From: an uncultured virus (IMG/VR IMGVR_UViG_2882593062_000003)
Lineage: Duplodnaviria > Heunggongvirae > Uroviricota > Caudoviricetes
DNA: 64,000 bases
IMG/VR virus record: IMGVR_UViG_2882593062_000003
Reading direction: 5' to 3' (one strand)
Shown: positions 31,087 to 64,000 of the stretch, in pieces
Position numbering within the stretch: the first letter of the stretch is position 1
Layout: every line of letters starts with the position of its first letter
Made by a program: the position numbers and the translations under genes
Notes under the pieces: generated by a model
The model's database searches: none
The model's input: only the letters and a program-made list of their open reading frames with translations
Told to the model about the DNA's origin: nothing

Positions 31087-31566
31087 TTATCGTCTTCCTA
31101 AATAACGATTCTGATTCTTTAGAATTCGCCGGGATGTGCCTTCCACGATTGTCCGGGTGAAGCCCCGCTCGTCGAAATCGACCTTGTCGAAGGGCAGTTT
31201 CTGCAGGTGGTTGGCCACGGATTGCCCTACGGCGTCGTAGTTGATGGCCATTCCCCGGCCGACCAGACCGGACTGATACGCCATGCGGTCGCGCCCTAGT
31301 TTCTGGTAGGCCATTTCGCCCTGCGCGATGCGGGAAAGCATCCCGGAGGCCGCAAACGCCCGGTCGTCCGACAGCAGCCGTTCGGTCAGATGGTTGGGCA
31401 GGATGATGTCGTCGCGGCCGACGTTGATCAGCGACGGGCCGTCGACCAGCTCCACGCCCGACCGGCTGAACCACAACTCCCGGCCGGCCTCCCCGGCGAT
31501 GGCCGGTCCTTCGAAACGGTCGAGATTGTCCAGCCCTTTCCCGTCCTTGTACTGGGGGATCGGACG
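31087..31566 (-). pseudogene. orphan 3' end of a tape measure protein gene
   Basis: RPIPQYKDGKGLDNLDRFEGPAIAGEAGRELW...RYLGRR aligns to TMP at 44735-45220; no upstream TMP sequence; high GC. Confidence 0.9.
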
Positions 31567-31580
31567 ATATAATTTTGACT

Positions 31581-32750
31581 TCAGGAGTTAAAATCACTGA
31601 CTAAGAGGTTTCTTCTTTTTTTATAGTAATGTTGGTTATAGTGCTTTCGACAGTAATACAGACTTTTTTTTGTTGGACTATCACACAACATGCAAACCCT
31701 AATGGGTTTATGTTGTAACTGAGGTGGCTTTCTGGGTCTTAAAATTCGGTTCGCGTATGCGTCAAGCCTCGCCTTTTTTCTTTGTAGATAGATTGTCGCG
31801 CCGTGATACATGTAATTGTATAACCTCAAAACCTGCTGCCTGCCACCAACTAAAATTGTAATAATTTTTAAATAGCCGTCCGGGTGGGAAATTCGCCTTT
31901 GAAAATATACATCACATTTAGCCATTAAAAACTCCCTTAGTGGATCAATAAAGTCCATATGCCCAATAAATCCAGCAGTACACCTGAATGTGGTTCTGCT
32001 CTTATCATTGCTGCGAAGAAGTACAGTTTCAGGATTAGTTATCCACCCATCGCCATCAAAGAAGCCTCTAACAAAGTGATGTATAAGGGACGGGTCAATA
32101 AAGTCAGGAAAAGAAATATTATAAGTCTTTCGTGCGTTTATCCCCCACCTTTCTAAAGCGCCGGACATACGCTGGTTCTTAATCTGGATTTTGCAGTACC
32201 TGTGTACATGACCCTTTTTCTTAGGGCGCTCTTCTCCGTAAACAAGCGGCTTGTCGGGATATACCAACCTGTTGAGCCTTTCCATCAATTCCGCATCTCC
32301 TTGTTGTAGCATCAGCACAATCAGGTTTTTCTCTGGCAAGTGATATCCATCGGCGTAAAGCATCCCGAGAAAATACGCTTTTTCCTCTGTGTCTATGCGA
32401 TCAAAAAAGTCCTCATTGATTGCATAGCGCCTGTTTCTAAGGGATCGGTCTCGAATTGGTACATTGCGCCTCTTTAATGTATTGAATATGGTCATAGGAG
32501 AAAGGCCGAATAGCTTAGCGACTTTCCCCAACGGCTTGCCTGAAAGGTACTCTTTGGCAATTTCCTCCGCGATACCATCGGTTTTCGATATTGATCTGAT
32601 GGAAACTTCATTTTTTTTCAGGACATAGGTCACCGCCTTCCGGCTTGCGCCCATTCGTTCAGCGACTTCCCTCTGATTGAGTCCAGACAGATACAAATCA
32701 ATTATTTGGGCATCCATCCCTTTTAGTTTCCCTGATTGCTTATTGCTCAT
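31581..32750 (-). CDS. LAGLIDADG homing endonuclease with two N-terminal HTHs and C-terminal Cys/His motif
   Basis: EKAYFLGMLYADG and HFVRGFFDGDG motifs; CxxC...CxxHY tail. Confidence 0.85.
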   Translation of the reverse strand: MSNKQSGKLKGMDAQIIDLYLSGLNQREVAERMGASRKAVTYVLKKNEVSIRSISKTDGIAEEIAKEYLSGKPLGKVAKLFGLSPMTIFNTLKRRNVPIRDRSLRNRRYAINEDFFDRIDTEEKAYFLGMLYADGYHLPEKNLIVLMLQQGDAELMERLNRLVYPDKPLVYGEERPKKKGHVHRYCKIQIKNQRMSGALERWGINARKTYNISFPDFIDPSLIHHFVRGFFDGDGWITNPETVLLRSNDKSRTTFRCTAGFIGHMDFIDPLREFLMAKCDVYFQRRISHPDGYLKIITILVGGRQQVLRLYNYMYHGATIYLQRKKARLDAYANRILRPRKPPQLQHKPIRVCMLCDSPTKKSLYYCRKHYNQHYYKKRRNLLVSDFNS

Positions 32751-33109
32751 CTTTTGATTGACTTTTTGAATGCTACAGATAATCGACGCGATATAGGTAT
32801 CCTTTCATTGTTACCAAGCTTCGCAAACACCTCTCCTTGACCATTTTGGCGTATCTCGGATATAAGCGACTCGTTCACTAGATGCGACCGATGTATCCTT
32901 ATAAAGCCGGGCAGTTCCCTCGACAGTCGCGCGAGGTGAATGGCGATCAGGTGCTTCCGCCCATTCTTTAAAATAAGCCAGCTATAGCTTCCGGCCGCTT
33001 CAAAGCGCACGATCTGGCTGAGGTAGACCCAGTCCGTATTCGCCCCGATGCGAAGCGTGAAGACGGCAATTTTAACGGGCTTAGCGGGCCGGTCACGGAG
33101 TGTAGTCAT
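32747..33109 (-). CDS. stand-alone LytTR DNA-binding protein (copy A)
   Basis: I.RFEA.GSYS...FIRIHRSHLVN...IPISRR; start MTTLR at 33109. Confidence 0.85.
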   Translation of the reverse strand: MTTLRDRPAKPVKIAVFTLRIGANTDWVYLSQIVRFEAAGSYSWLILKNGRKHLIAIHLARLSRELPGFIRIHRSHLVNESLISEIRQNGQGEVFAKLGNNERIPISRRLSVAFKKSIKR

Positions 33110-33827
33110 GGTAGAAGAGTTCAGACATAATGATGCCGTACAGCTTTTCCAGATGCCCATGCCGCTCGGCGACCTCCAGCAGCGAGACGCCCGGTTGTCG
33201 CCGGTAGCCCCGGATGTTGACCCGGTAGAGCTGGTAGAGCCGGTCATAGAGCCAGTTCCAGGCTTCATGCTGGGGAATATCCCGCTCCCCGCAGTAGTCG
33301 TTGATGAGCTTGTTGATTTCCTCCCGGCTGGAGGGTTGGGGCGGGGCGACCGGAGCCGGTTGAGAATACCGACCGCCCGTGATCAGGTGCGTGACCAGCG
33401 TTTCCAGCTTCGCCAGACGGCCACTTTGCTCGGTGAGTTGCTGGGCGTGGTTGACCAAGAGGGCTGCTTGCTGGAGCATCAGTTCCGCCGAACCGCCCGC
33501 CACCGCTTCGGGGGCGGGAACGGTCTGCTGCAACTGCTTTTCGCATTCGATGAAGTAGCGCCGGGCCTGTTTGCCCTTCTCGTTACCCTCCACCATCGCC
33601 AGTTCCTTGGCCGCTTCCAGCGTCAGGGCGTAGTCCAGTTCGGGCCGACCTTTTTCTAAAATTTTAGAAATAACCACAAAGTCCTGCCCCTCAATCAAGT
33701 CATACTTCTCAATCCGGTTTTTCATCCAATCGGCAAACTTGGAGCGGATTTGAAGGAAGCCGTGCAGGGTCCGGGCGGAAACGACCGCCCGGCCTTCTTT
33801 CTGTTCAATGGGAATCAAGGCGTTCAT
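33093..33827 (-). CDS. AntA/AntB antirepressor family protein (copy A)
   Basis: VSAR.LH.FL....FADW.K.RI.KY...AKELAMVE.NEKGKQARRYFIECEK. Confidence 0.85.
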   Translation of the reverse strand: MNALIPIEQKEGRAVVSARTLHGFLQIRSKFADWMKNRIEKYDLIEGQDFVVISKILEKGRPELDYALTLEAAKELAMVEGNEKGKQARRYFIECEKQLQQTVPAPEAVAGGSAELMLQQAALLVNHAQQLTEQSGRLAKLETLVTHLITGGRYSQPAPVAPPQPSSREEINKLINDYCGERDIPQHEAWNWLYDRLYQLYRVNIRGYRRQPGVSLLEVAERHGHLEKLYGIIMSELFYHDYTP

Positions 33828-35278: not shown

Positions 35279-35587
35279 TCAGTTTTGGGAGAAGCGGTAG
35301 GGAAAGGTGTCGGCCGTAGCGGGCTTAGGCTGGGGCAGCTGGTTTTTCAGCAGGGCCAGCAAGCGGTCAATAAGCCGCTTTTGGGAATCAATCACCTGAT
35401 CGCGGTGGTCGATATGGCGATTCAGCAGCTTTTCGCGCCGGGCCAACTCCTGAAAGTAGAGATCAGCGGGGTAGAAAACGCCGGTTTCGCCGGGGAAGAT
35501 GCGGGGCCGCAGGTCCGGGGAGGTGGGGCCAGGTTGGGGCGCACTTGCGCCAAAGGAGGCATTGTCGTAGTTTTGCTCCGTACTCAT
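35279..35587 (-). CDS. conserved 102-aa coiled-coil protein (copy A)
   Basis: Near-identical copy at 61364-61672. Confidence 0.75.
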   Translation of the reverse strand: MSTEQNYDNASFGASAPQPGPTSPDLRPRIFPGETGVFYPADLYFQELARREKLLNRHIDHRDQVIDSQKRLIDRLLALLKNQLPQPKPATADTFPYRFSQN

Positions 35588-35745
35588 GACATGAACGTGT
35601 TTTGGGTGTCACAAGCCCCTTCGCTGACGTCGCCAAACTGATAGCGTTGGGGTTTTTTGTTAGGGGTTGGCTTCCTTCATACGGTCCAGCGGGCAACCGG
35701 GTTGGTGCTATTCCGCCTTTTCTGATTTGAGCCGTTTCCGTATTA

Positions 35746-35777
35746 CAAAGGTAAGCAATCCTTGCATATATGCAAGG
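35746..35777 (-). promoter_or_regulatory. core promoter plus operator A
   Basis: Perfect palindrome CCTTGCATATATGCAAGG (35760-35777) upstream of -7 TACCTTTG. Confidence 0.75.
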
Positions 35778-35793
35778 GAAATAAGCAAAAAAA

Positions 35794-36018
35794 TTACTGC
35801 GTTTTGATATTTATCTCTAACTCAGCATTCAATGCTTTGGCAATTGTTTTCAAGGTGGCAACTGTAAAATTATTCTTTCCAACCTCGTACCCAGCAACGG
35901 TGGACTCAGAGACACCGAGTTTTTGAGCAAAGGTAGCTTGAGTATACCCCTGCTTCTTCCTTAAATCCTGAATCAGCTTACCCAATTCTTTTGATGTGAT
36001 TGGCATTACAGAGATCAT
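35794..36018 (-). CDS. XRE-family HTH regulator (copy A)
   Basis: LRKKQGYTQ.TFA.KLGVS.STVA.YE.G. Confidence 0.85.
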   Translation of the reverse strand: MISVMPITSKELGKLIQDLRKKQGYTQATFAQKLGVSESTVAGYEVGKNNFTVATLKTIAKALNAELEINIKTQ

Positions 36019-36334: not shown

Positions 36335-38671
36335 ATGGACAAAAGTGAAAAAGAAACAATAGATGAATTGTTAAAAAAATTAAAATCAGAAGACCTGGAT
36401 TATAGAGAAATAATTCGTCTATCGAATCAATTATCCAAATATGACACAAAATACCAAAGATTTGTTATAGATGCAAAGACACTAATCCATTTAGGGAGAG
36501 ATAGCATAAAGGACCACACAACAGCATTACTTGAACTAGTAAAGAATAGTTACGACGCAGACGCAAAAAATGTAATTGTTGAAATATATTCAAAAGGTGA
36601 AGAGAAGTATATAAGAGTAGCAGACAATGGTTTTGGAATGAAAAAAGAGGAGCTGTTAAATAATTGGTTAAGAATCGGATTTTCTAATAAAAGACAGTCA
36701 AAGTTAAGTAATTTAGGCAGGAGGAGGACAGGCGAAAAAGGCATTGGAAGAATTTCAACTGATAGATTAGGTTCAAAATTAGTATTAAAAACAAAAAGTA
36801 GTGATGATAAAATAGTTGGCTTAAAAGTAGATTGGGATGATTTTGATACAGAAGGGAAAGACGTATTTGATATAAATGTAGAAATATTCGAGCCTATTGA
36901 AATTGATATCCCTAAAAATGAAATTAACAATTCATTAACTGGAACAGAAATAATAATAACAAACTTAAGACAAAATTGGACTGAAAAAAATGTAGAAAAT
37001 TTATACAATGAACTTTCCTCATTAACCCCGCCATTTGAAGATATAAAAGATTTTTCAATAGAATTAAAAAATGATATATTATCATCATTATCAAAAAAAG
37101 TAAGTACTGAATTTCTTAAGGCTGCAGAAATAGAATTAACACTTATATATGATGGAAAAGGAAAAGGCCTACTTTACACTATCAAAGATAAGCATCAAAA
37201 AGAAGAAATAGTTAAGGAAATATCTTGGCAAAATTTAATACAAAAAACATTTTCAAGTAACGAGCAAAACCAAATAAGTGAAGATCTGAGCTGTGGACCG
37301 GTAACAATAAAACTATTATTCTTTTTAAGGTCTGCTACAGCCGTAGCAGATTTAGATTTTAAATTGGCAGACCTAAGAGAATTTTTAAATGTAAATGCTG
37401 GCCTTAAAATATATAGAGATAATGTTGCCGTAAAGCCTTATGGATTTCCAAGTTCACAAAATGGATTTGATTGGCTTAGCTTAGCAGAAAGAAAAGCAAA
37501 AGATCCTGGTGGTATTGGGCGAGAAGACGGAGGTTTGGTTTTACCATACCAAATTGTTGGCGCAATATATATAACAAGGGATAACAACATTGCACTTACT
37601 GATAGTGCAGCTAGAGAAGGACTAGTAGAGTCAGAAGCCTTCAATGATTTAAAAAATTTGGTAATGGGTTCTATAGTGTTATTAGAAACTCACAGAGCCG
37701 ATTTATATCAAATGCTAGATAAGGAGAAAGAGACAAAAACACTAACTTCATCAAAAGAAAAAGAGTACATTAGAGATAAATTTTTAGTTGTAAAAGCAGG
37801 GTTAAATACGCTAAAAGAGGCAATTCAAGAGCAAGGTGACACAAAAATTAAAGATGAAAGCTTACAAATAGTAGAAAGTGCATCAGAGACGGTTTCTAAA
37901 GTTGAAATAATAGTTGAGAAAACTATAACTGAATTACTAGCATGGAACAGGGTTTTAAGTGGTTTGGCAACTTTAGGAATATCATCTGCAGTATTTGGTC
38001 ATGAAACGGAAAATTCAATTTCACAAGTTTTAAACTCTACCCATACAGCAAAGTTAATTTTAAATCAAATAACGCCTAATATTGAAGATGCAGTACAAGA
38101 AATAGATAAAGCCTTAGCGCATTCAACAAAAGTATCTGCTTGGGGTGCATATGCACTAACAAGAGTGCAAAAAGAAAAGCGAAGTAAAAAAGCATCAAAT
38201 ATTACGAGAATAATTGAAGCAGTAGTAAAAGAATTAAAGCCTGCATTTATGGCGGCTTCAATAGAAATAAAAGTAATAGGCGAAATGATTGTTAGTAAAA
38301 CCTATGTAATGGATATTGAATCAATACTAATAAATTTACTAACAAATTCGTACACAGCAGCGACACAAAAACCAGGTGATAGAAAAGTTAAAGTTGAAGT
38401 AGCAAGAGAAGACAAGAATGGACAAATCGGGTATTATTTTGCGGTATCAGACTCTGGCCCAGGAGTAGCAAAAGAGTTTAGAAAGAGGATTTTCGATCCA
38501 CTTTTTTCAACAAAGAATAGTAGTACAAATGCAAGTAAAAGTGTAGGTACTGGTTTAGGGCTTACAATTGTTTCCTCCATAGTAGCTGAGTTAAAAGGAA
38601 CAATTGAGGTTGATATAGATCCAATACTTAAAGGCGCAAGATTTAAAGTTTGGTTACCAAAGGAGAAATAG
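36335..38671 (+). CDS. GHKL (MORC/MutL-like) ATPase fused to histidine kinase
   Basis: ELVKNSYDADA, DNGFGM, GEKGIGR; H-box VFGHE; NLLTNS, DSGPG, GTGLGL. Confidence 0.85.
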   Translation: MDKSEKETIDELLKKLKSEDLDYREIIRLSNQLSKYDTKYQRFVIDAKTLIHLGRDSIKDHTTALLELVKNSYDADAKNVIVEIYSKGEEKYIRVADNGFGMKKEELLNNWLRIGFSNKRQSKLSNLGRRRTGEKGIGRISTDRLGSKLVLKTKSSDDKIVGLKVDWDDFDTEGKDVFDINVEIFEPIEIDIPKNEINNSLTGTEIIITNLRQNWTEKNVENLYNELSSLTPPFEDIKDFSIELKNDILSSLSKKVSTEFLKAAEIELTLIYDGKGKGLLYTIKDKHQKEEIVKEISWQNLIQKTFSSNEQNQISEDLSCGPVTIKLLFFLRSATAVADLDFKLADLREFLNVNAGLKIYRDNVAVKPYGFPSSQNGFDWLSLAERKAKDPGGIGREDGGLVLPYQIVGAIYITRDNNIALTDSAAREGLVESEAFNDLKNLVMGSIVLLETHRADLYQMLDKEKETKTLTSSKEKEYIRDKFLVVKAGLNTLKEAIQEQGDTKIKDESLQIVESASETVSKVEIIVEKTITELLAWNRVLSGLATLGISSAVFGHETENSISQVLNSTHTAKLILNQITPNIEDAVQEIDKALAHSTKVSAWGAYALTRVQKEKRSKKASNITRIIEAVVKELKPAFMAASIEIKVIGEMIVSKTYVMDIESILINLLTNSYTAATQKPGDRKVKVEVAREDKNGQIGYYFAVSDSGPGVAKEFRKRIFDPLFSTKNSSTNASKSVGTGLGLTIVSSIVAELKGTIEVDIDPILKGARFKVWLPKEK

Positions 38672-38673
38672 CC

Positions 38674-39333
38674 ATGGCAGGAAAAATTGCAATAATTGAC
38701 GATAACAAAGACCAAAGAGAAACCTTACAGAAGGCATTAAAAATTTTGCTTTCGGCAAATGGAAGTGATCTTGATGTTATAACAGTCTTTCCATTTGAAA
38801 ACCTTGAATTATATTCAAAATGGATTTTAGATGAAGAAATATGTGTTTTAATATTTGATGAAAAAATGCATGATGGGAGGGAAGATGGACAAGGCCCTGT
38901 ACATTATAAAGGCAGCGACTTAGTTGATACAATCAGACAGGTTTTTAAAGATATTCCTATATTTACAGTCACTGCTTATGCAAATGATGAAGAATTGCGT
39001 GCCAAATTTGGGCATTTTGAACAAATTATAAATCGAAAAGATTTTATTTGGTTTGGAGATAGGTATGTAAATATAATAATAAGGGCCAGTCAAAGATATC
39101 TAGATCAAAATCAAAAAGAAATGGCAGAATATAATTCTTTGACTAAACTCGCTGCCCTTGGAGATATAGATCAAAAGGACTCTGAAAGACTTGAGGCGCT
39201 TCAAATAAAGTTAAGCCTTCCTGTTATAAATACACTAAAAGATAGAGGAGAATGGATTAGGAAATATGAAAGCCAAATAGATGCACTTAATCAATTATTA
39301 CAGACAGTTCAAGCGAAAGTCAAAAAGTTATGA
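38674..39333 (+). CDS. response-regulator receiver-domain protein
   Basis: KIAIIDDN, LIFDEKM, IPIFTVTAY. Confidence 0.8.
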   Translation: MAGKIAIIDDNKDQRETLQKALKILLSANGSDLDVITVFPFENLELYSKWILDEEICVLIFDEKMHDGREDGQGPVHYKGSDLVDTIRQVFKDIPIFTVTAYANDEELRAKFGHFEQIINRKDFIWFGDRYVNIIIRASQRYLDQNQKEMAEYNSLTKLAALGDIDQKDSERLEALQIKLSLPVINTLKDRGEWIRKYESQIDALNQLLQTVQAKVKKL

Positions 39334-39947
39334 ATTGGAAACTTATACTAAAAAAAGCTGAAAATCAGCCTAAAACTGGAACTTATTCAGATTGGAAGGA
39401 ACAAATTGCTGAGGAGTGCTTTCATCGATGCGTATACTGTTCAATCCCCGAATCTCAATTTGGCGGGATTAATAATTACCATATAGATCATTACCGGCCT
39501 AAATCGCTACCAGAATTTATTCATTTGGAAAATGACATTTTGAATTTATTTTATGCCTGCCCTATTTGTAATAGGTTTAAAAGTAACGATTGGCCGAATG
39601 ATTCTGATGATCTTGAACTTGTATGTTATCCAGATCCATCTAAAATAGATTATTCGCATTTATTTAAAATGGATGATAATTTCTTATTACATGGCAATGT
39701 AGTTGCCGCAAGATATTTAGTTGAAAGGTTATTTTTGAACCGTGCTCAGTTGGTTTATGAACGAAAAGAGTTAACACTTATAAAAAAAGCAGCTCTTTTA
39801 ATTGATGAAATAATGAAAATAATTGGCAGAATTGAAGATAAAGAGTTACTTTTGGAAGCATTTGTATTAATTGGGGAATTACATAATACTTTAGCTGAGA
39901 AAGCTGAAGTTAGACCTTACGAACTTTTTGAAATTAGGCGCCCTTGA
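39330..39947 (+). CDS. HNH endonuclease
   Basis: CVYC...HIDHYRPK...NLFYACPICNRFKS. Confidence 0.85.
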   Translation: MNWKLILKKAENQPKTGTYSDWKEQIAEECFHRCVYCSIPESQFGGINNYHIDHYRPKSLPEFIHLENDILNLFYACPICNRFKSNDWPNDSDDLELVCYPDPSKIDYSHLFKMDDNFLLHGNVVAARYLVERLFLNRAQLVYERKELTLIKKAALLIDEIMKIIGRIEDKELLLEAFVLIGELHNTLAEKAEVRPYELFEIRRP

Positions 39948-41557: not shown

Positions 41558-42065
41558 ATTGTATTTTTACCTTTGATTCTCTATAAAAATTCTTGTAATC
41601 TTGGGTGCAGTTAATTAATATTTTTATATTTTATATTATTTTAAATTTTTCTGGTTTCCTCTTTCATGTAATTGTTTGCTTGTATATATTCTTTGGTCTT
41701 TTTATTTTATTCAGCCCTCTCTCTTACCTACCTCGATTTAAGGTTTTGGCGTCGATTTACTTTGGCTGGCTCTTAAACTATTTGTTTCAGCTTTTATTTT
41801 CCTGACTTCCGCTTTTCTGATTGTTATCATGTTTTTTTGCCTAAGGGCTTACTAATACTCTCAGGTTTTACTCTGAGCCGGTGAATTTATCCCTATTCCG
41901 TTCTTGAAAGAGGACTTTTCCTTTATGGGTATTGGTCTAAGTGAGCAAAAAGGGCAAATTTCCCCTGATATACGGGAATTTTACCCTTGACGGTCGATCC
42001 TGCCTGAGCCAACTTTATCACCTCATTCTATAATGGTCGTTTGTTCATCTAATCCAGATGAGGTT

Positions 42066-43325: not shown

Positions 43326-43340
43326 ACCAAACCAAGAATA

Positions 43341-44675: not shown

Positions 44676-44676
44676 A

Positions 44677-48972: not shown

Positions 48973-49024
48973 TTTAGCAGTTAATTGATTACAACTGAAG
49001 ATATTAAATAAAAAGGTAAGGCCT

Positions 49025-51605: not shown

Positions 51606-51767
51606 ATAAAATGTAATTATATATCTATAGATACTGACGAGGCGGAAATATGAAAAAAGGTCAGAACTTTTTAACCTCATCAGTCCCTTTGGTTTGCTTC
51701 GGTGTCTCACCCGGCTAAATTTGCAGTAGCCGGTGACCCATGACTAACGATGCCCATAGTTTAACAG

Positions 51768-54383: not shown

Positions 54384-54393
54384 AAGCTTGGTT

Positions 54394-54846
54394 TTACTCA
54401 TTAACCTCAAAGTCTGAGGAATCAGCAGACGGTGCTTTAAGATACAGCACAATATTGTTCAAGGTCTTTTTCCTAAGCGGTTGGCGCAATTCACATTCGA
54501 AGATGCTGACAACGTTCCAGCCAGCGTCACGAAGCTTTTGAAAATGCTCAGCATCCTTATTCCGCGTGGTGAAAATTTTATCAGTCCACCACTCGCTACG
54601 GGTTTTAGGGATGGTAAAATACCGGCATCCTTCGTGACCATGCCAGAAACAGCCATGCACGAAAATGACAGTATGGTACTTTGGCAAAACGATATCCGGC
54701 TTACCGGGAAGCTCTTTGGCATGTAGCCTGAAACGAAATCCGTTAGCATGCAGGAACCGACGAACCAGCATTTCGGGCTTAGTGTCCTTGCCTTTAATTC
54801 GGCTCATATTGTAACTCCTGACCTCCTTTGAATGTACATCAGCCAT
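54394..54846 (-). CDS. vsr: very short patch repair endonuclease
   Basis: MADVH..EVRSYNMSRI..KDTKPE, PGKPD, FVHGCFWHGH. Confidence 0.92.
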   Translation of the reverse strand: MADVHSKEVRSYNMSRIKGKDTKPEMLVRRFLHANGFRFRLHAKELPGKPDIVLPKYHTVIFVHGCFWHGHEGCRYFTIPKTRSEWWTDKIFTTRNKDAEHFQKLRDAGWNVVSIFECELRQPLRKKTLNNIVLYLKAPSADSSDFEVNE

Positions 54847-54967
54847 ACTTATATTACGCAGGTATTGCCGTAACGGTTCCGCAGACACAGTATCGTAAGT
54901 CGTTTTCTGTCTTGCTGTTAAATACAGAAGCAGTACGTTAACTGCCTGCTAATAAACATCACATGAT

Positions 54968-55150: not shown

Positions 55151-55399
55151 TCCCAAATCGCCGAACAGGAGGCTTCTTACCAGAAATTAGGTCGCGACCG
55201 GATGCACTATCATACGGCAATGGCTCAGGCAGGCGGCAAGTCTGGCCCCAGTGCCAGAGAAATTGCAGCTGCTTTAGCTGATGAGCTGGAGAAGCGACCC
55301 CGCTTACAGTTGAATAATGATGAGAACGGCTTTACCCGGACGATCATTGAGAAGACGACAAAGCGGGTTGAGCTGAATAAGCGAAGGTATTTGAGCTAG
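55151..55399 (+). pseudogene. third TMP 3'-end fragment
   Basis: SQIAEQEASYQKLGRDRM...SAREIAAALADELEKRPRLQL..DENGFTRTI matches TMP at ~44790-44989. Confidence 0.9.
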
Positions 55400-55635: not shown

Positions 55636-55681
55636 AAACAAAGAGCCGAGTGAAGTATATACTTCACTCGGCTCTTTGTTT
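55636..55681. repeat. perfect 46-bp palindrome (probable bidirectional terminator)
   Basis: AAACAAAGAGCCGAGTGAAGTAT|ATACTTCACTCGGCTCTTTGTTT. Confidence 0.85.
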
Positions 55682-55708
55682 TCGTTAAGGCCCTGTCTTG
55701 TTAATGAC

Positions 55709-56206
55709 TTATTCTTGAGAAGCCTTCTTTTCTTCGTCTTTTCTTTGTTTTGACCAGTATAACCAGCATCGTCTGGCATGTATACCAAAAAAGGCAGCTT
55801 GATGTGTCTTATTGGTCTTATCCAGAGTCAATCCATCACAGAACTCCGGATAATCCATTAAGTCGAAAAATCCTTTCCCTGTGATATAGCCGTCCGATTC
55901 ACCACAAAGTATTACTCCAAGTAAAGGCCTTCCTGCCCGGTACTCATCATCATTAATCTCCCAACAGATTTGACCAATTAGCCTACGGTGATAATTGTAG
56001 GTCACATACAGAGGAATATTCAATGCTGAATAAAGCTCCCTGAAAGTACACTTGTGGCCTTTCTTTGCCAAGCCCTTGAGATAGTTAGAAATAGCCTCTT
56101 TCAAAGACTGAGGAGAAGAGTAGTCGCCAAGAAGGTGATCGGGATAAGTTTCCTTAGGGCGCGAAAGAGCAGGATGCCCATGTGAGCGGGATGATAACTC
56201 ATTCAT
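55709..56206 (-). CDS. hypothetical protein (winged-helix-like, RPLL..I.....G.GFF motif)
   Basis: 165-aa ORF ending at the palindrome. Confidence 0.6.
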   Translation of the reverse strand: MNELSSRSHGHPALSRPKETYPDHLLGDYSSPQSLKEAISNYLKGLAKKGHKCTFRELYSALNIPLYVTYNYHRRLIGQICWEINDDEYRAGRPLLGVILCGESDGYITGKGFFDLMDYPEFCDGLTLDKTNKTHQAAFFGIHARRCWLYWSKQRKDEEKKASQE

Positions 56207-56640
56207 CTTAATATGAATTGACGGTTATTACTTGTGCTTAGCTTTTACAAAGCCCTCACACTATCATTGCAAAATTAGGTAAGCGGTAAATTCTTACCAA
56301 GAAAATCCTCATTATTTTATGGTTTCATCAAAAAGGGTCTTTTAATTTTGAATTCTGCTATTAACGGTCCCAGCCTAGCCAAAGATCAAAAGCGGCCGAA
56401 GCGGATTGAGTTGAATAAGCAGAGGTCTCTAAGAAAAGGTTGAACTCTCAAGCTAGAAGGACTAAGATCAAATAGTTGAAAACATAAGGACAAAAAAAGC
56501 GTTCGCAGAGGAGGGTTGCGGACAAACAAGTTAAAAACAAGAAGCAAATTCTACCATTAAAGGACTGATCTTTAGCAGGTTGCGAAAATTTTATTTCTTG
56601 CCTATTTTAAAGTTTATATATATATTATAAATAGCGCCTT

Positions 56641-58086
56641 GTGACATGGATTGAAGAAACTATTCTAAAAAGAGGGCCTTTATTGTCTGGGACCTTAATA
56701 AGTGAAATGCAATCACAGGGCATTTCCAATGAAGCTATCCGAAAACGAATATCAAGAGTAGAGCCACCGCTATATAAACTAAGTAAATATTTCAAAAATA
56801 GGCAGTCCCTCATATATCACATAGATCATATAAATGGAAGAGAATATTACAATGGCCTTATATCAGCTTTTGAAACTGCAGGCAAAAGTTATTTCGCCGC
56901 TATTAAAGCATTAGAATATCATCAAGGCTATTTAAGGAAAGACGAATTAGCAAATTATTTAATTAGTCCAGTTGGAAATTTAAAGAAGCATAAAAAAGCA
57001 GAAGTCATAATAAAGGACTTAATAAAGCTAAAGGTAATTCAAGAGAACGAAGATTATTATTCGTTAAATCCACTATATAGCCGCAGTGGTGATTTTAAGC
57101 ATTTTAAGGGGATAAATATAGCTAAAGAGGTTACAATAAAACAATTATATAACTGGGCGAGGAGTATAAATTTAGTTTCTTATGATAAGGGAACGTTTAA
57201 CTCAGAATATTCAGGTTTCCAATGGGCTTTTGTTGGTCCATCATATATCTCTACAGTACTCCAATTTAAAGAAGAAAAACTTAATCCTGGGTTCATTGTT
57301 TCTGATATTTTAATCATTGATATGGTTGAAAAAAGCCATATTGAGTTCTTTATTGCAAAATTAGAAATAATAAAAAGGTTAAATGTCCCTAAAGTTATTC
57401 CTCTCCTTTTAGTTAACAAGGTATCAAATGAAGCACTGCAGTTATTAAAAGAGAAAGGGATAATAGTAGGGTTTATTGAGAAAATATTTGGCCCTGGCTA
57501 TTCTCAACTGTTAAGTTCGCTTATAAAAGTTATAGAAGAAGCCGGAAAATTATTAAAATCAGACCCTGATAAGTTTATAAAGTTACTAGATCAAATAAAT
57601 AAATTTGTTGATGGCGGAGTAAATAATTTACGGGGAGACTTATTCGAACTTGCTGTTGGTTATTTTTATAGCAGTCAATGTCAAGTACTTGAGATAGGTA
57701 AGAAAATTTCGCATGAAGGGCAAATCACTGATATTGATGTACTTGTAATAAAGCAAGACAGATTAATACTTGCTGAATGTAAGGGTTATAAATCAAACAT
57801 CTCAAAGCAAGTAATTGAAGATTGGATCACAAATAAAATTCCATTGTTTTATAAATGGGTAAATAGCCAATCTTTGCTAAGAGGGAAAAAGATAACTTTT
57901 GAGTTTTGGTCTGCCTCTGAATATACTGAAGACGCAAGGAAAATATTTACCGAAAGGTCTGATGTTTTAAGAAAATACGAAGTGAAAATCTATGATCGAC
58001 AAGAAATAATCAAAATGGCAAAAGATTTTAGGATTACCAAATTTATTGAAATTATGAACAACTACTTCATTAAAGTACCTGCTTAA
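56641..58086 (+). CDS. protein with C-terminal PD-(D/E)xK restriction-endonuclease-like domain
   Basis: GDLFE....TDIDVL......LAECKGY. Confidence 0.7.
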   Translation: MTWIEETILKRGPLLSGTLISEMQSQGISNEAIRKRISRVEPPLYKLSKYFKNRQSLIYHIDHINGREYYNGLISAFETAGKSYFAAIKALEYHQGYLRKDELANYLISPVGNLKKHKKAEVIIKDLIKLKVIQENEDYYSLNPLYSRSGDFKHFKGINIAKEVTIKQLYNWARSINLVSYDKGTFNSEYSGFQWAFVGPSYISTVLQFKEEKLNPGFIVSDILIIDMVEKSHIEFFIAKLEIIKRLNVPKVIPLLLVNKVSNEALQLLKEKGIIVGFIEKIFGPGYSQLLSSLIKVIEEAGKLLKSDPDKFIKLLDQINKFVDGGVNNLRGDLFELAVGYFYSSQCQVLEIGKKISHEGQITDIDVLVIKQDRLILAECKGYKSNISKQVIEDWITNKIPLFYKWVNSQSLLRGKKITFEFWSASEYTEDARKIFTERSDVLRKYEVKIYDRQEIIKMAKDFRITKFIEIMNNYFIKVPA

Positions 58087-58088
58087 AT

Positions 58089-59771
58089 TTAAAATTTAAA
58101 AAATTTCTCATGCTCAGATAGTAACAAACAAGTATTTTCATTTATAAACGAAATGTCAAACGATGTGAGTTTATCTCGCAAAATTGAAACAACATATTGA
58201 CCAGGAAGGCTATTAGCTAATTCAAAGGCAGTAGAAAGTTGATTAATATGTACATCCTCTGTGCTATCGTGAAGTACAAACCTTGGCAATTTTGATTTCA
58301 TTTCATCTAAAAAAGAAATATATGCAAAATCAAAAGCAGTAATTTGGCCTTTCTTTTTGCCTGTTCCAACATTTCCTGAAAGAGTATCCAACTTAAATTC
58401 AATCTTTTCCCCCTTCTTATCGTAAGAAAGAAAATATTGTTCATCGTATAACTTTTTTGAATAGTCAGCAAAATAAGTATTGAAAATTGCTAACTTATTA
58501 TCAAAATCAAACAAATATTCATTCAATTTCATTGTAAACAACTCCACTGCCTTTCGACTTTTTTCACAATTCGTTTCTTCGCTTTCAATGAGAGATATGA
58601 GTTTACTTTCTTGTCCTCTTCTTTCATAAAGTAAATTGAGTTCATTCTGCAGTTTATTTAGTTCGGACAAAGAACCTGTATCTGTAATTACCTTTAAAAG
58701 CTTACTCTCCTCAGTCAAGTAAAAGTTAAGATCCTTATAAGATTCCTCAATTTGAGTAATAGTCTCAGTTAAGTTTCTTTTAATAAAATCTATTTTTTTA
58801 TCAATCATTTTATTGTGAAAACCAAGAACTTCTTCGAAAGTTTTTTGAAGGCTTGGGACTAAAACTTTTGCCTCTTTATATAACTCTTTTATAGCTAAAG
58901 GATCAATTTTTGACCGATTACTCTCAAGTTCTTCTAAGCTTTCTTGATTTAACTGATGCTTAATTTTTAGGTTCGCAATCCGATTTGTAATTATTCCAAT
59001 TTGGGTTTTAATTTCATTTAAACGATTAACCTCTCTTTCATAAGATGCATTAAGCTTAAAACCTTTTAACTGCTCATTTGTAACGTCAATATTATGGTCT
59101 ATTATTTTTAGTATTTGTTTACTTGATTGAATTGACCTATTTCCTGACTTCAAAGCTTTCAACCTTTTTTCGGTCTTTTGCAATTCTTTTATTGCATACA
59201 ACCTATCTACTAATAAATTATGATCAGTGAAACCAAACAAAAAAAGGAATAATACCTCATATTCATCCTTTGTCGTTGTAGAATAAAGGAATTTTAACGC
59301 ATTAGTCATTGAAGTCATATCTTTTCGAATAAACTTATGCATTAATTGCCTTATTGACGGTTTTGAATTTTTAATGCTGAAAATCTCAAGCTCAAGCTTT
59401 TCTCTATATTGTTTTAAAGATGGAAAGGATTCATTATTAATTTTTAATAATGAACTATCATTAAATCCTCTTTCTAATATGTAAGACTTATTATTACTTG
59501 TTAATGATAAAGAAACCACTATTCCATTCTTAAATAGGTATTCATAAACGGGCTGATTTATAGTCCTAAACTCTGGATCAGTATAGATATCTTTGCCATC
59601 CGAACCAAAACAAAAATCGATTACTCGAAGTAATGTAGTTTTACCTACATTATTTCCAGATTCAGTATTCTTCTTCGTTGTCTCATCTATTACCAAGTTT
59701 AAACCAAGCTTAAAATCTACCTTTCGGATTTCGATTTTATCTAACTTTACTATTAATTGATTTAATAGCAT
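58089..59771 (-). CDS. ABC-three-component/Lamassu-type SMC-like ATPase (DUF2326-like)
   Basis: GNNVGKTT Walker A; coiled coil; GTGKKK signature; FVLHD Walker B. Confidence 0.85.
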   Translation of the reverse strand: MLLNQLIVKLDKIEIRKVDFKLGLNLVIDETTKKNTESGNNVGKTTLLRVIDFCFGSDGKDIYTDPEFRTINQPVYEYLFKNGIVVSLSLTSNNKSYILERGFNDSSLLKINNESFPSLKQYREKLELEIFSIKNSKPSIRQLMHKFIRKDMTSMTNALKFLYSTTTKDEYEVLFLFLFGFTDHNLLVDRLYAIKELQKTEKRLKALKSGNRSIQSSKQILKIIDHNIDVTNEQLKGFKLNASYEREVNRLNEIKTQIGIITNRIANLKIKHQLNQESLEELESNRSKIDPLAIKELYKEAKVLVPSLQKTFEEVLGFHNKMIDKKIDFIKRNLTETITQIEESYKDLNFYLTEESKLLKVITDTGSLSELNKLQNELNLLYERRGQESKLISLIESEETNCEKSRKAVELFTMKLNEYLFDFDNKLAIFNTYFADYSKKLYDEQYFLSYDKKGEKIEFKLDTLSGNVGTGKKKGQITAFDFAYISFLDEMKSKLPRFVLHDSTEDVHINQLSTAFELANSLPGQYVVSILRDKLTSFDISFINENTCLLLSEHEKFFKF

Positions 59772-60001
59772 CTTTCAATTCCAGATTTAGAGTTAATACT
59801 TATAAGACCTAAAATAAATAGCCAATCTAAGGCATATAAAAAGTAACTAAACGAAATCTTTTCTGGAAAATTCTTCGCCAGCTTCTCATACAAAATTTGA
59901 ATGTCAATAATTCCCATACTTTCAGAATTTAGGGTCTCTAAAATTTTTGACCCAATTACATACAAACTTTTTTCTGGTTTAATATCAATTGGTAATATCA
60001 T
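59762..60001 (-). CDS. ABC-three-component middle component
   Basis: MILP..IKPE.SLY.IG..IL...YALDWLF.LGLI. Confidence 0.8.
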   Translation of the reverse strand: MILPIDIKPEKSLYVIGSKILETLNSESMGIIDIQILYEKLAKNFPEKISFSYFLYALDWLFILGLISINSKSGIERCY

Positions 60002-60579
60002 CAGCCTTTGTTTGGGTTCTCTAATATCTTACAGTCGATAAAAGCTTTACAAACAATAATTACTAAACAAGCTTGAAGGTCTTCCTCCATGATTTGTTCA
60101 AAGTTAGATGATCTTTTATAATCAATACTTAATGAATCTATTATGTTTGTTATAATTATATCTGCATATTTACAAATTAAACTGTGTTTATCCTGATTCG
60201 GATTTTGTGCAACTAAGTCACTTACTTGCCTAATATACTTATTATTTATGCTTTTTAAAAATCTGCTTTTAGAATTAGGCTTTTCATTATCTAGCGTTTC
60301 ATAAATTTTATCTACTATTGCACCATAGTTTCCATAGTTTTCAATTACTTCTTTGTAAACCTTTATTTTATTGAATTCGATTTTTTCATTTATTTCATAT
60401 AATTGTAGTGTGGTCAGACCTTGCGGTGTATCATCAAGCACTTTTTCAAGTCGGCTGATTACAATAGATAAATAAGATGGAAGTCTTTCTTGTAAATATT
60501 TGTAATCGTTAATAATTAGGGTACCGGCCGATTGGTATACTGTCCCTTTTGCTTTAAAATTAGTTAATGCTCCCTTCAT
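60001..60579 (-). CDS. ABC-three-component CTD protein
   Basis: EKI.FN.I..Y...I..Y; ends F.DCKILENP. Confidence 0.75.
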   Translation of the reverse strand: MKGALTNFKAKGTVYQSAGTLIINDYKYLQERLPSYLSIVISRLEKVLDDTPQGLTTLQLYEINEKIEFNKIKVYKEVIENYGNYGAIVDKIYETLDNEKPNSKSRFLKSINNKYIRQVSDLVAQNPNQDKHSLICKYADIIITNIIDSLSIDYKRSSNFEQIMEEDLQACLVIIVCKAFIDCKILENPNKG

Positions 60580-60784
60580 TTTTCCCTTTATTTATAGTCA
60601 TATCTCCAGAAGTTTGGAAATTTTCTTTACCTTTTGCTTTAAATTGGATGTCACCTTTGTGACTTTTATTTGTTTTTATAGTTTTAGATATTTTGTTCGC
60701 TTTCCTTAATGCCATAATGCTTACAATCATTGAAATGATCGAAGAGGCTCCTACAATTATGTTAAATATATCTATTGCTTTCAT
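60560..60784 (-). CDS. small TM protein heading the ABC-3C operon
   Basis: N-terminal TM, basic tail, overlaps the CTD gene. Confidence 0.6.
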   Translation of the reverse strand: MKAIDIFNIIVGASSIISMIVSIMALRKANKISKTIKTNKSHKGDIQFKAKGKENFQTSGDMTINKGKNEGSIN

Positions 60785-61153: not shown

Positions 61154-61169
61154 ATATTTTTTTGCCCCA

Positions 61170-61672: not shown

Positions 61673-61681
61673 TTCTTTCCC

Positions 61682-63127
61682 ATGAATGCCTCTAGCTTTC
61701 AGGCTGGCCCCTTCTCCGGGCCCGCCCTCTACACCACGCTCTCGCACAAGCCCCTGCGCTGCCGCTTCGAGTTCAGAAAGAACCGGCGGACCCTGCAAGC
61801 CAGCCCGGCCGGAATAATTCAGGTGCTGATCTTTCTGGGTGAGGAAGCCTCCGCCCCGCTTTCCACGAAGATCGAAACCACCCGGCCCGTCTGGGAGAAC
61901 CGCTACCGCTTTCCCAACCGGCCCGACTCCATTGACCTCAACACCAAGATCGAAGGCTTTCGCCGGAGGCTGGAACTGGCTCACCTGCTGCTGATACAGG
62001 AGAAGATTGGGCCGACCCCGCGAAACCTCTACCAACTGGCCGTGTGGATGCAGAAACGCCACCAGCGCACGGGCTTCGACCCCCAGACGGAAGCCTTTCA
62101 CCCGGACGCGGAAGTCCAGCACACCTTTCGCAAGGAAGCCACCGAAATGCTGAAAGGAATTCGTCGGAAGGTCGTCACGCTGGAAAGCCTCTACGGAGAG
62201 TTTATCGCCGTGCGGGGCAGACTCATCAACGACAACCGGTTCACTCGGGACGGAGAGCAGATCAGCACCGCTACCTACCAGTCGTATGGCTATCGGTGGA
62301 AGCTGATCGAAACCTTTCTCAGGGAAAATAACCTCGCCGAACGGTCTCTGTTGGAGGTAACGGCTGCCGATGCGGTGAACCTGAAAGAGTTTTTGCAGGG
62401 ACAGTCCTCGCGCTACGGCCGGCCGGTCAAACACTCCACCATCGCCTATACGGTCACGTTTCTTCGGCAACTGCTGGATTATGCCGTGCTGAAAGGCTAC
62501 CTGAAATACAACCCCCTGCACGCCGTGCGCAACGGGGGCAAGTCAAAAGCCAGCCCTAAGCCTCTGACCTTCGAGCAAATGGACTTCCTCGAACGGATGG
62601 ACTTACCCCACGACCTGCAACACTACCTCGAAAGCTGGCTGGTGGCGGCTGAACTCTGCCTGCACCACGCCGATTTCATGGAACTGCCCACGATGCACTT
62701 TAAGACCGATGCGGTCAGCGGGAGACGCTACTTCATTCACCCGCGGGTTAAACAGCGCCGGGCCGACATTCACATGTACGTCGATGTGACGCCCCGCGCC
62801 GAACGCCTGCTGGCGAAGTGGGGTGGGGTGAAGGGGCTAAAGTACGCCGGTTACAGTCTGTACCATGCCCGGCTGATGCAGATCAGCCTGTTGGCAGGTC
62901 TGCGGGACAACAAGGGTAAGCCGATCAAACTAACCTTCGGCATGGGCCGGGATACGGGCCTGACGCACCGGGCGATGCTGAAAACGCCCACGCTGGTCCT
63001 GCAGGCGAACGCGGGGCATACCTCCTCCGAAATGCTGACGAAGTACGTCGATGCCGGAGAGCAGCTACTCCTCAGCCAGATGGCCCAAACCAATCCCTAT
63101 CCTCTTCAAACGCTATCCCTCCGATGA
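61682..63127 (+). CDS. tyrosine recombinase-like protein (copy B)
   Basis: Same length as copy A, roughly 94% identical by hand count. Confidence 0.8.
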   Translation: MNASSFQAGPFSGPALYTTLSHKPLRCRFEFRKNRRTLQASPAGIIQVLIFLGEEASAPLSTKIETTRPVWENRYRFPNRPDSIDLNTKIEGFRRRLELAHLLLIQEKIGPTPRNLYQLAVWMQKRHQRTGFDPQTEAFHPDAEVQHTFRKEATEMLKGIRRKVVTLESLYGEFIAVRGRLINDNRFTRDGEQISTATYQSYGYRWKLIETFLRENNLAERSLLEVTAADAVNLKEFLQGQSSRYGRPVKHSTIAYTVTFLRQLLDYAVLKGYLKYNPLHAVRNGGKSKASPKPLTFEQMDFLERMDLPHDLQHYLESWLVAAELCLHHADFMELPTMHFKTDAVSGRRYFIHPRVKQRRADIHMYVDVTPRAERLLAKWGGVKGLKYAGYSLYHARLMQISLLAGLRDNKGKPIKLTFGMGRDTGLTHRAMLKTPTLVLQANAGHTSSEMLTKYVDAGEQLLLSQMAQTNPYPLQTLSLR

Positions 63128-63861
63128 ACGCGCTGATTCCCATTCAACAGCAATCCGGGCGCACGGTGGTGTCTGCTCGTGACCTGCACACCTTTCTGGA
63201 GGATAAACAAAAGTTTGCCGACTGGATTAAAAAACGGATTCAAAAGTACGAGTTGGTGGAGGGCGAAGATTATCTCACGTTTTCATTAAATTCTGAAAAC
63301 GGAGGGCGCTCGATTGAATACGCTCTGACGGTGGAAGCGGCCAAGGAACTGGCGATGGTTCAGGGCAACGAGAAGGGCAAACAGGCCCGGCGCTACTTCA
63401 TCGAATGCGAAAAGCGGTTACAGCAGACCGTTCCCGCCCCCGAAGCAGTGGCGGGCGGTTCGGCGGAACTGATGCTGCAACAAGCGGCCCTGTTGGTCAA
63501 CCACGCCCAGCAACTCACCGAGCAAAGCGGCCGGTTGGCGAAGCTGGAAACGCTGGTCACGCACCTGATTTCGGGCGGTCGCTACAGCCAGGCCGCCCCG
63601 GTCGCCCCGCCCCCACCTTCGACCAGCCGGGAGGAAATCAACAAGCTCATCAACGACTACTGCGGAGAGCGGGACATTCCCCAGCACGAAGCCTGGAACT
63701 GGCTGTATGACCGGCTCTATCAGCTTTACCGGGTCAACATCCGGGGGTATCGCCGTCAGCCGGGCGTCTCGCTGCTGGAAGTGGCCGAGCGGCACGGTCA
63801 TCTGGAAAAGCTGTACGGCATCATTATGTCCGAACTCTTCTACCATGACTACACTCCGTGA
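63124..63861 (+). CDS. AntA/AntB antirepressor family protein (copy B)
   Basis: VSARDLH.FL....FADWIK.RI...ARRYFIECEK. Confidence 0.85.
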   Translation: MNALIPIQQQSGRTVVSARDLHTFLEDKQKFADWIKKRIQKYELVEGEDYLTFSLNSENGGRSIEYALTVEAAKELAMVQGNEKGKQARRYFIECEKRLQQTVPAPEAVAGGSAELMLQQAALLVNHAQQLTEQSGRLAKLETLVTHLISGGRYSQAAPVAPPPPSTSREEINKLINDYCGERDIPQHEAWNWLYDRLYQLYRVNIRGYRRQPGVSLLEVAERHGHLEKLYGIIMSELFYHDYTP

Positions 63862-64000
63862 CCGGCCTGCCCAGCCCATTAAAGTCGCCGTCTTCACGCT
63901 TCGCATTGGGGCGAATACGGATTGGGTGTACCTCAGCCAGATCGTGCGCTTTGAAGCGGCCGGAAGCTATAGCTGGCTTATTTTGAAAGACGGACGAAAA
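63845..64000 (+). CDS. LytTR protein (copy B), truncated by window end
   Basis: MTTLRDRPAQPIKVAVFTLRIGANTDWVYLSQIVRFEAAGSYSWLIL. Confidence 0.8.
   Translation, partial: MTTLRDRPAQPIKVAVFTLRIGANTDWVYLSQIVRFEAAGSYSWLILKDGRK

Follow-up and report, generated by a model that had tools for sequence, protein, structure and literature searches.

A cassette of defence-type genes interrupts the tape-measure protein (TMP) locus of a prophage in a 64,000-nucleotide stretch of uncultured-virus DNA (IMG/VR record IMGVR_UViG_2882593062_000003; G000:C12:40553-104552), referred to here as the window. This cassette, termed copy A, entered the resident TMP gene through recombination, supplied the gene with a new 3' end and stranded the native end downstream. 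The explanation that we favour, with a probability of about one half, is an endonuclease-linked, homing-type insertion, by analogy with the mobile open reading frames (mORFs) of fungal mitochondria. The window is spanned by an ~80-kb siphovirus-type prophage, and Pfam and PHROG annotation of the window plus 20 kb beyond it is that of a single prophage. The genome is 6.9 Mb in size with 57.6% GC, and the only named relative found is a Larkinella metagenome-assembled genome. The prophage backbone has ~58-60% GC and is broken up by several islands of 27-43% GC.

The TMP gene is an intact open reading frame (ORF) of 1174 amino acids (aa). Its GC content at third codon positions (GC3) falls from 0.75 to 0.51 at a change point at codon 816, such that codons 1-815 resemble the backbone and codons 816-1174 (45811-44735) are foreign. 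The lower-GC part therefore begins near codon 816 (about 45811) and not at ~45220, where the earlier note on this DNA had placed it. TMP residues 1012-1174 recur, at 66% aa identity, at 31572-31090, 13.6 kb downstream; the duplicated part starts at codon 1012 (45226). The earlier note had recognised this second, high-GC TMP end behind the LAGLIDADG gene. The end itself is confirmed, but the TMP-like frame is 31087-31572, and the 172-aa ORF at 31079-31597 is in another frame. A run of 161 open codons would arise by chance with a probability of about 0.007 (hand estimate from base composition). The GC3 of the remnant is 0.77, compared with 0.75 for TMP codons 1-780, 0.71-0.72 for the neighbouring tail genes and 0.51 for the expressed end. 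Because the remnant is backbone-like and the expressed end is lower, the expressed TMP is a hybrid. On composition alone, the remnant is the native end and the expressed end of ~360 codons is foreign. The relatives compared are all distant, with TMP ends 36-43% identical to the remnant and 39-47% identical to the inserted end. A TMP search in viral contigs yielded one contig, which matched TMP residues 231-585 only and carried no other prophage gene. The distance from the TMP stop (44735) to the LAGLIDADG stop (31581) is 13.15 kb of cargo and core, and the remnant starts 8 nucleotides (nt) past the latter. The foreign tract of ~360 codons exceeds the 163 duplicated ones, beginning 196 codons upstream of the duplication boundary, which fits co-conversion during break repair and not conservative site-specific recombination at a fixed core. 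Alignment of the 490-nt duplication revealed no identical core of the attachment (att) type at the copy A junctions; the longest identical run is 12 nt, located ~60 nt inside, and 5 nt are identical at the boundary.

Related prophages show the locus without the cassette. The 885-aa tail protein, whose gene comes directly after TMP in related prophages, was used as query and detected relatives in 23 of 401 family genomes. Sixteen loci were fetched and 14 were counted, leaving out G306 and G100 where the contig ended. The TMP stop lies ≤62 nt from the start of the 885-aa gene in 8 of the 14, so that empty alleles, for which the earlier note had suggested looking, do exist. In five others the gap of 1.3-4.0 kb holds small accessory genes, for example SHOCT, DUF4468, GNAT or an AntA-KilAC module, and in the remaining locus, that of G290, TMP modules lie on the opposite strand. 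At the position of the second cassette, copy B, the head genes of G246, G135 and G148 run directly into the tail genes. Short TMP gaps and uninterrupted head-tail junctions thus identify both cassettes as insertions. The locus has the hallmarks of a hotspot, with defence-type cargo between conserved phage genes and both empty and differently filled alleles in relatives.

The gene that abuts the remnant encodes a protein of the LAGLIDADG homing-endonuclease type, whose homologues in phages carry the annotation mobile intron protein or endonuclease. Homologues occur, one each, in 8 of the 401 family genomes, and all eight are located in the region of the TMP gene and the next tail gene, at TMPs of at least three types (Table 1). 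One of them reproduces the arrangement seen here. The order in G154 is TMP, cargo, XRE, x, Rha, HNH, LAGLIDADG, 10 kb of AT-rich defence-type genes (AAA_21, Abi_alpha) and a TMP remnant. The G154 TMP is unrelated to the TMP of this genome and has its own GC3 change point at codon 744 (0.49 to 0.37). Its remnant corresponds to TMP residues 874-974 with 73% identity and has a GC3 of 0.54 versus 0.37 for the expressed end; an extra 31-aa TMP tail fragment is present just past the TMP stop. G154 is an independent second case of a hybrid TMP, a cassette and a native remnant. TMP fragments flank the modules in three of the eight LAGLIDADG genomes, namely this one, G154 and G324, the last with an N-terminal fragment.

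The window contains the cassette twice. Both copies follow the order TMP 3' end, hairpin terminator, AT-rich cargo, XRE-family regulator, 102-aa ORF, 481-aa tyrosine recombinase, AntA and LytTR. Repeats together with Pfam, PHROG and PADLOC, which also back the gene identities, bear out the earlier observation of one ordered layout with different cargo. The description of copy A as GHKL-histidine kinase, REC, HNH and methyltransferase cargo, then LAGLIDADG, then a high-GC TMP 3' end is equally correct, and the TMP 3' fragment of copy B does resemble the lower-GC end of copy A, with 84% aa identity. Core A (35862 to 32852, minus strand) and core B (61085 to 64105) are inverted relative to one another and share 86.7% identity over 3026 nt. 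The TMP 3' end at 44989 to 44748 recurs at 55151-55392 with 82.2% nt identity over 242 nt. The copy B fragment is joined to no TMP gene and has a GC3 of 0.58. The synonymous divergence (dS) and the ratio of nonsynonymous to synonymous divergence (dN/dS) between the copies are 0.48 and 0.05 for the 102-aa ORF, 0.38 and 0.08 for the recombinase, 0.51 and 0.18 for AntA, and 0.69 and 0.16 for the TMP ends; the XRE proteins share merely 55% aa identity. Core dS values of 0.38-0.51 and the XRE divergence exclude a recent in-place duplication. The two copies are old, evolve independently and are both under purifying selection. An assembly artefact was ruled out by the 13% divergence and the differing flanks. 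The homology stops within LytTR and the ends of the copies differ, at TMP codon 1012 versus 1091 on one side and LAGLIDADG versus TnpB on the other. LAGLIDADG (GC3 0.45), XRE (0.44) and the foreign TMP tract (0.51) are similar in composition, and the 102-aa ORF, recombinase and AntA genes (0.73-0.76) are backbone-like. Pfam and PHROG scans of the two cassettes detected no primase, Rep, TerS or capsid-related families.

The conserved core comprises XRE, a structured leader, an ORF beginning with 'MSTEQ', AntA or Rha, and a nuclease. Such modules lie beside TMP genes in G290, G324 and G342, where they consist of XRE, an ORF of 131-151 aa, AntA or Rha, and a LAGLIDADG, HNH, GIY-YIG or TnpB nuclease, next to TMPs that are whole, duplicated or fragmentary. 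An MSTEQ.Y N-terminus is common to these ORFs and to the 102-aa ORF, for which a look-up of Atlas structures returned nothing usable. Alignments place upstream of all these ORFs a TAnnTTTG promoter-like element and a leader of ~150 nt containing a hairpin with the loop TTGGCG. The hairpin pattern has 18 matches in 13 of the 401 genomes and none in a backwards-read control. At the positions that the pattern leaves free, compensatory changes occur in four pairs, and 96% of the cells are paired compared with 40-50% when the partners are slid. Rfam contains no family for the leader, which from its sequence is a candidate for a new cis-regulatory element.

Seven of the 18 hairpin loci are TMP-linked (copies A and B here, two in G290, and one each in G324, G342 and G175). 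Five are on plasmid-like contigs with genes for Rep3, type IV coupling protein (T4CP) and ParA, and in four of these five (L094, L095, L096 and L097) the T4CP gene has an x-HNH pair directly at its 3' end. In L097:332-4059 (G324 contig C74) a stray C-terminal T4CP fragment, residues 400-576 at 35% identity, is present on the far side of the module; it may represent the same gene-end footprint on another target. The other six loci are in other islands near cargo such as NACHT, AAA_15, ThiF/multiubiquitin and MrcB-HNH. The context scan used Pfam on 87 of 155 ORFs and a TMP-domain hidden Markov model plus blastp on the rest, with stop-to-stop ORFs of at least 150 aa. Since 11 of the 18 loci have the core and no TMP, the core itself is not TMP-specific. 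In the same set, TMP linkage is seen in 4 of 4 loci with LAGLIDADG versus 3 of 14 without (Fisher p=0.011, an overstatement as kin are not independent). LAGLIDADG is the component that tracks the TMP locus. The earlier note had proposed a family of elements that insert into TMP genes and repair them, to be surveyed through the recombinase and 102-aa protein and their TMP flanks. The insertion of copy A, the replaced end, the varied cargo and the empty alleles agree with that proposal. The occurrence of the core without TMP does not, and the two proteins do not define a family, as relatives of the recombinase outside this genome are only 29-44% identical and related TMP-linked cassettes, including all modules of G290, G324 and G342, are without it.

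In the homing-type explanation the LAGLIDADG endonuclease would cut cassette-free TMP alleles, with a cassette-bearing copy as the template for repair. Co-conversion would then account for the foreign tract that precedes the duplication boundary, and the cargo would turn over by recombination between the TMP-end/terminator flank and the XRE/leader flank. In the mORFs of Allomyces (atp6) and Glomus (atp6, atp9, cox2, nad3), as far as the available part of the source describes them, an inserted C-terminus is followed by a LAGLIDADG or GIY-YIG ORF with the native C-terminus downstream, and the encoded enzyme cuts alleles that lack the ORF (PMC3630166). As in those parts of the mORF account, an in-frame foreign C-terminus keeps the host gene intact, an endonuclease-type ORF is present, and the native end lies downstream, unexpressed. 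In the mORFs this end is nearer to the resident lineage; here its composition points the same way. The inserted and native ends have diverged in both, to 64-81% nt identity in the mORFs described there and 66% aa identity here. However, the target here is a prophage structural gene and the unit is 13.6 kb long, compared with ~1-2 kb for the mORFs of that text, and a regulator/antirepressor core, a recombinase and defence operons are located between the foreign end and the putative endonuclease gene.

Several observations weigh against a homing-type insertion. The 13 kb between the foreign C-terminus and the endonuclease gene exceeds that of any mORF in the consulted part of PMC3630166. No TMP fragment was found in five of the eight LAGLIDADG loci, and the G154 remnant is not adjacent to LAGLIDADG but 10 kb away from it. 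The placement of LAGLIDADG varies: in G315 it precedes TMP, in G175 and G069 it follows TMP in antisense orientation, and in G342 12 kb separate the two. A cassette has to end in some gene, and the accessory regions of phages are places where selfish nucleases collect. In two TMP-linked modules, G290 #1 and G153, no nuclease could be recognised. By eye, the 159-aa ORF that closes G290 module 1 had been taken for an HNH gene; Pfam gives nothing for it even at E=0.1, and it was not counted as a nuclease. Copy B contains no LAGLIDADG and its ends are unlike those of copy A, so it lends no support, and its TnpB is a discrete 1.08-kb unit without flanking homology to its closest relative. Finally, the remnant is backbone-like from its first codon, and thus no right-hand co-conversion is visible.

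A serious, if less probable, alternative is undirected recombination at an accessory hotspot. General and illegitimate recombination between related phages in the same cell would give rise to the hybrids, partial duplications and inversions; the long TMP gene would serve as homology anchor, and the nucleases, TnpB and recombinase would be passengers. In its favour, small accessory genes occupy the junction in 5 of the 14 relatives (1.3-4 kb), and the TMPs of these prophages are mosaic in composition, switching at various points. Partial copies of the 5' end of the 885-aa gene occur nested and in both orientations (27380-27423, 28459-28563 and, inverted, 44630-44673), G324 has duplicated or inverted tail genes, G290 has entire TMP modules in inverted orientation, and the XRE/leader/x core is also found on plasmid-like contigs and islands. 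P2-like phages have tail-region defence hotspots, according to the available part of a preprint (10.1101/2024.10.15.618418). This explanation, however, leaves unexplained why all eight LAGLIDADG homologues are at TMP loci of at least three types, why the ordered footprint of foreign end, cassette and native end appears twice, and why the endonuclease gene ends within 8 nt of the native remnant.

An integrative element is a rather unlikely explanation. The 481-aa recombinase, with the 102-aa protein as directionality factor, would bring a circle into the 3' part of the TMP gene, and the TMP copy on the attP side would restore the gene. Direct duplication of a gene 3' end is the classic footprint of integrase-mediated integration, and homologous TMP 3' ends stand at the same end of both copies. 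The recombinase is intact and its catalytic-type motifs GRDTG, AGH and KY are conserved in the alignment. It and the 102-aa ORF are under strong purifying selection (dN/dS 0.08 and 0.05); judged from motifs and selection, the recombinase looks functional. In L091, an island of the same genus, a canonical integrase occurs together with XRE, leader, x and LytTR. The catalytic domain was undetected by Pfam, and no PDB homologue was found by sequence. The junctions, however, have no identical core (12-nt run ~60 nt inside, 5 nt at the boundary), the foreign tract begins 196 codons upstream of the duplication, the ends of copies A and B do not coincide, and the recombinase is internal, 2.2 kb from the nearer cassette end. 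Its composition is unlike that of the foreign TMP tract, XRE and LAGLIDADG. Every other TMP-linked cassette is without it, including that of G154, which has the same footprint. Relatives of the recombinase are found in 9 of the 401 family genomes including this one, at 29-44% identity outside it, and their short loci show no TMP. A search in genome contigs detected one locus at 35% identity, one in viral contigs had no match, and from 5.8 billion proteins a search retrieved the sister copy and no more than two others, at 32-35%. We regard the recombinase, confined as it is to this genome, as an addition specific to this lineage.

A programmed switch, by which the recombinase would invert the ~25-kb block between the inverted cores or exchange TMP C-termini in the manner of a shufflon, would account for two inverted 3-kb cores each encoding a recombinase, for three TMP 3' versions of which one is inverted, and for the inverted TMP modules of G290, but it is highly improbable, as the cores are 13% diverged (dS about 0.4-0.5), unlike actively recombining sites, the inverted end (B) is upstream and not downstream of TMP, inversion would cut off TMP together with six tail genes from the remaining operon, and G290 has no recombinase homologue.

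The origin of copy B is suggested by G290 and G324, where head and tail genes enclose a second, complete TMP with XRE, x/Rha, and TnpB or GIY-YIG behind it. Copy B appears to be the relic of such a TMP-bearing module, its TMP cut to 83 codons beside a restriction-modification insertion of Dcm, MvaI-like and Vsr genes. Beyond position 64000, where the earlier note had suggested looking for another TMP remnant, LytTR and TnpB are followed by head genes and no further TMP remnant was found. The copy B TnpB is 79% identical to that of G176 at the aa level, with homology restricted to the ORF, and TnpB was for this reason dropped as a marker of the copy B insertion site. A G290 TnpB that is 35% identical to it occupies the equivalent module end, one gene off. 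Rfam detected no omega-RNA near the copy B TnpB, and comparison of its 3' flank with that of the G290 TnpB revealed no clear conserved scaffold. The two full-length TMP genes of G290 (L046, 4006-7530 and 13291-17157) are both encoded on the opposite strand from its head and tail genes. Their ends are 60-67% identical in aa sequence, each has its own upstream hairpin motif, and the downstream x ORFs are 97% identical. Patches of 85-97% identity shared by the two G290 modules suggest exchange between two modules of one prophage.

The remaining features of the prophage are as follows. Minus-strand genes for an integrase (421 aa), Tad3, TerS, TerL, portal and capsid are located right of the window at ~65.4-79 kb, and the distal tail genes occupy the stretch between 27397 and ~9.3 kb. 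Tad3 is an anti-Thoeris family protein (PF25185, E=4e-25) encoded at L003:13296-13877 (window ~76296-76877), and its gene adjoins a PD-(D/E)XK nuclease gene near the integrase end of the prophage. The methyltransferase of cargo A is of Eco57I type, and PADLOC and Pfam assign MTase_II, a PtuB-like HNH and a REase_II-like GHKL to this cargo, which has a GC content of 0.27-0.34 at 36-42 kb. Its 430-aa ORF (42033-43325) differs from these AT-rich neighbours with a GC content of 0.50 and bears a weak likeness to outer-membrane β-barrels (Atlas structures, TM 0.3-0.44); on this similarity it could be a lysogenic-conversion surface protein. PADLOC and Pfam detect PDC-M68B/LmuB-like and CTD10 proteins in cargo B. 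Another AT-rich island, at window 3352-6816, holds an 1154-aa ORF with at least eight tandem 33-aa (99-nt) repeats, HEAT-like repeats and a STAND/AAA NTPase domain, which has no match in PADLOC. The island at 27443..31086 has no match in Pfam or PADLOC, and a repeat search located within it, at 28459-28563, a partial second copy of the 5' end of the 885-aa gene.

A hairpin motif with an 8-bp stem (GGACTGCG ... CGCAGTCC) immediately precedes the start codons of the TMP and 885-aa genes. It is present at 27398-27442, 48260-48305 and 51568-51588, with extra copies at 28459-28563 and, inverted, 44630-44673, and it probably controls late genes. In front of the G290 TMP genes there is a hairpin that is analogous but not the same. 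Where partial copies of the motif stand together with the first codons of the 885-aa gene, they are the scars of old insertions.

Table 1 Features of the window and its right flank, and positions of LAGLIDADG genes in family genomes.
Feature	Position	Strand	Basis or remark
885-aa virion/tail protein gene; directly after TMP in related prophages	24740..27397	-	phrog_15220 E=1.5e-110
AT-rich island, three antisense ORFs, from native TMP end to 885-aa gene	27443..31086	+	GC 0.32-0.43
Native TMP C-terminal remnant, 161 codons + stop, startless, stops upstream	31087..31572	-	66% aa identity
HTH-LAGLIDADG homing-endonuclease-type gene, 389 aa (HTH, helix-turn-helix)	31581..32750	-	phrog_4645 E=1.2e-47; weak Pfam LAGLIDADG_3
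LytTR DNA-binding protein, copy A	32747..33268	-	PF04397 E=3e-15
AntA-domain antirepressor-like protein, copy A	33093..33827	-	PF08346 E=1.4e-23; phrog_5817
Tyrosine recombinase, copy A, 481 aa	33824..35269	-	PF13102; phrog_1 integrase, residues 148-473
102-aa ORF, copy A	35279..35587	-	N-terminus MSTEQNY common to related 131-151-aa ORFs at same position
TAnnTTTG promoter-like element and conserved leader, copy A	35588..35793	-	hairpin 35616-35652
XRE-family regulator, copy A, divergent from cargo operon	35794..36018	-	phrog_8 E=2.5e-14
Cargo A: GHKL/histidine-kinase-like (778 aa), REC-like, PtuB-like HNH, type II methyltransferase, 430-aa and 292-aa ORFs	36335..44475	+	
Inverted copy of upstream motif and first 6 codons of 885-aa gene	44630-44673		repeat search, sequence reading
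Hairpin terminator right behind TMP stop	44674-44734		sequence reading
TMP, 1174 aa, intact ORF, compositional hybrid	44735..48259	-	PHROG TMP families
Tail genes upstream of TMP, between copies A and B	48382..51710	-	synteny with relatives; phrog_8914, phrog_8145
Dcm-type methyltransferase, MvaI/BcnI-type endonuclease, Vsr; adjoins truncated side of copy B	51863..54888		Pfam, PADLOC
Orphan TMP 3' fragment, equivalent to codons 1091-1171, + stop	55151..55399	+	84% aa, 82% nt to copy A end
Terminator palindrome, copy B	55636-55681		
Cargo B: 165-aa ORF, NERD-like 481-aa protein, DUF2326/PDC-M68B ABC ATPase, ABC-3C CTD10, 74-aa ORF	55636..60784		
XRE, copy B	60929-61153	+	
Leader, copy B	61154-61363	+	hairpin 61298-61335
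102-aa ORF, copy B	61364-61672	+	
Tyrosine recombinase, copy B	61682-63127	+	
AntA, copy B	63124-63861	+	
LytTR, copy B, extends past window	63707-64192	+	
TnpB closing copy B, single-copy	64226-65311 (L003:1226-2311)		NCBIfam guided_TnpB, 365 bits
LAGLIDADG, this genome	abuts native TMP remnant		
LAGLIDADG, G324	1.6 kb upstream of full TMP		
LAGLIDADG, G342	module between tail genes and TMP, 12 kb off		
LAGLIDADG, G175	218 nt from TMP stop, antisense		
LAGLIDADG, G315	~0.5 kb upstream of TMP start		
LAGLIDADG, G069	~250 nt past TMP stop, antisense		
LAGLIDADG, G176	~100 nt before next tail gene, behind 22 kb cargo		
LAGLIDADG, G154	within cassette after TMP		

Copy A shares parts of its organisation with several known elements. 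The free-standing homing endonucleases of T-even phages (intronless homing, SegF-type marker exclusion) are encoded beside their presumed target, and break repair co-converts the flanks; large cargo and a duplicated gene end are absent from those systems. Phage-inducible chromosomal islands (PICI) and P4-like satellites carry an integrase, an XRE-type regulator, antirepressor-type genes and swappable defence cargo. In contrast to these, no replication or packaging-redirection genes were found in either copy, and the cassettes are located in a prophage tail operon and not at a chromosomal att site. The integrases of phage 21 and e14 reportedly target the icd 3' end and carry a replacement end, as tRNA-targeting islands are said to do. 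A duplicated, diverged gene 3' end flanking the element and a target that stays intact are common to both. Here, however, no att core is shared, the recombinase is internal, the ends of the copies differ and the foreign tract exceeds the duplication. The P2 old/tin and Z/fun loci are described, in the available part of the source, as defence/accessory hotspots between tail-related genes (10.1101/2024.10.15.618418). Like the loci in that part of the account, the region described here has variable, largely defence-type cargo among tail genes, with occupancy varying among related phages. It differs from them as there described in that a conserved XRE/leader/ORF/AntA/nuclease core accompanies the cargo, the insertion is inside a structural gene, and the flanking gene ends are duplicated. 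A literature search, of records and not full texts, found no description of TMP-inserted cassettes or of endonuclease-linked phage defence cargo. Tail-region defence hotspots and mORF-type insertions are known separately; by this search, their combination in a phage structural gene with this core is new.

Defence systems cluster in prophage hotspots, and the route by which they arrive is mostly unexplained. The pattern common to copy A and G154 offers a concrete, testable route for defence genes into prophages. Homing has so far been tied to introns, inteins and small free-standing genes. If the insertion is endonuclease-driven, homing would carry immune cargo of tens of kilobases from virus to virus and make chimeric tape-measure proteins in the process. 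A broader proposal, which we put forward only tentatively, is that these are regulated, cargo-carrying homing cassettes whose terminal nuclease would break an essential, conserved gene of elements that are rivals or lack the cassette, upon which the cassette would be copied in and the gene patched with the C-terminus that the cassette supplies. With it would come the XRE/AntA switch, the structured leader RNA and over 10 kb of interchangeable anti-phage genes. LAGLIDADG would then target TMP genes, HNH may target plasmid coupling-protein genes, and homing endonucleases would serve as vehicles for the spread of defence systems among phages. Phages, plasmid-like contigs and islands all carry the XRE/leader/ORF core, which suggests that defence cargo in mobile elements of the Spirosomaceae type has a regulatory module in common, one that includes the candidate cis-regulatory RNA hairpin.

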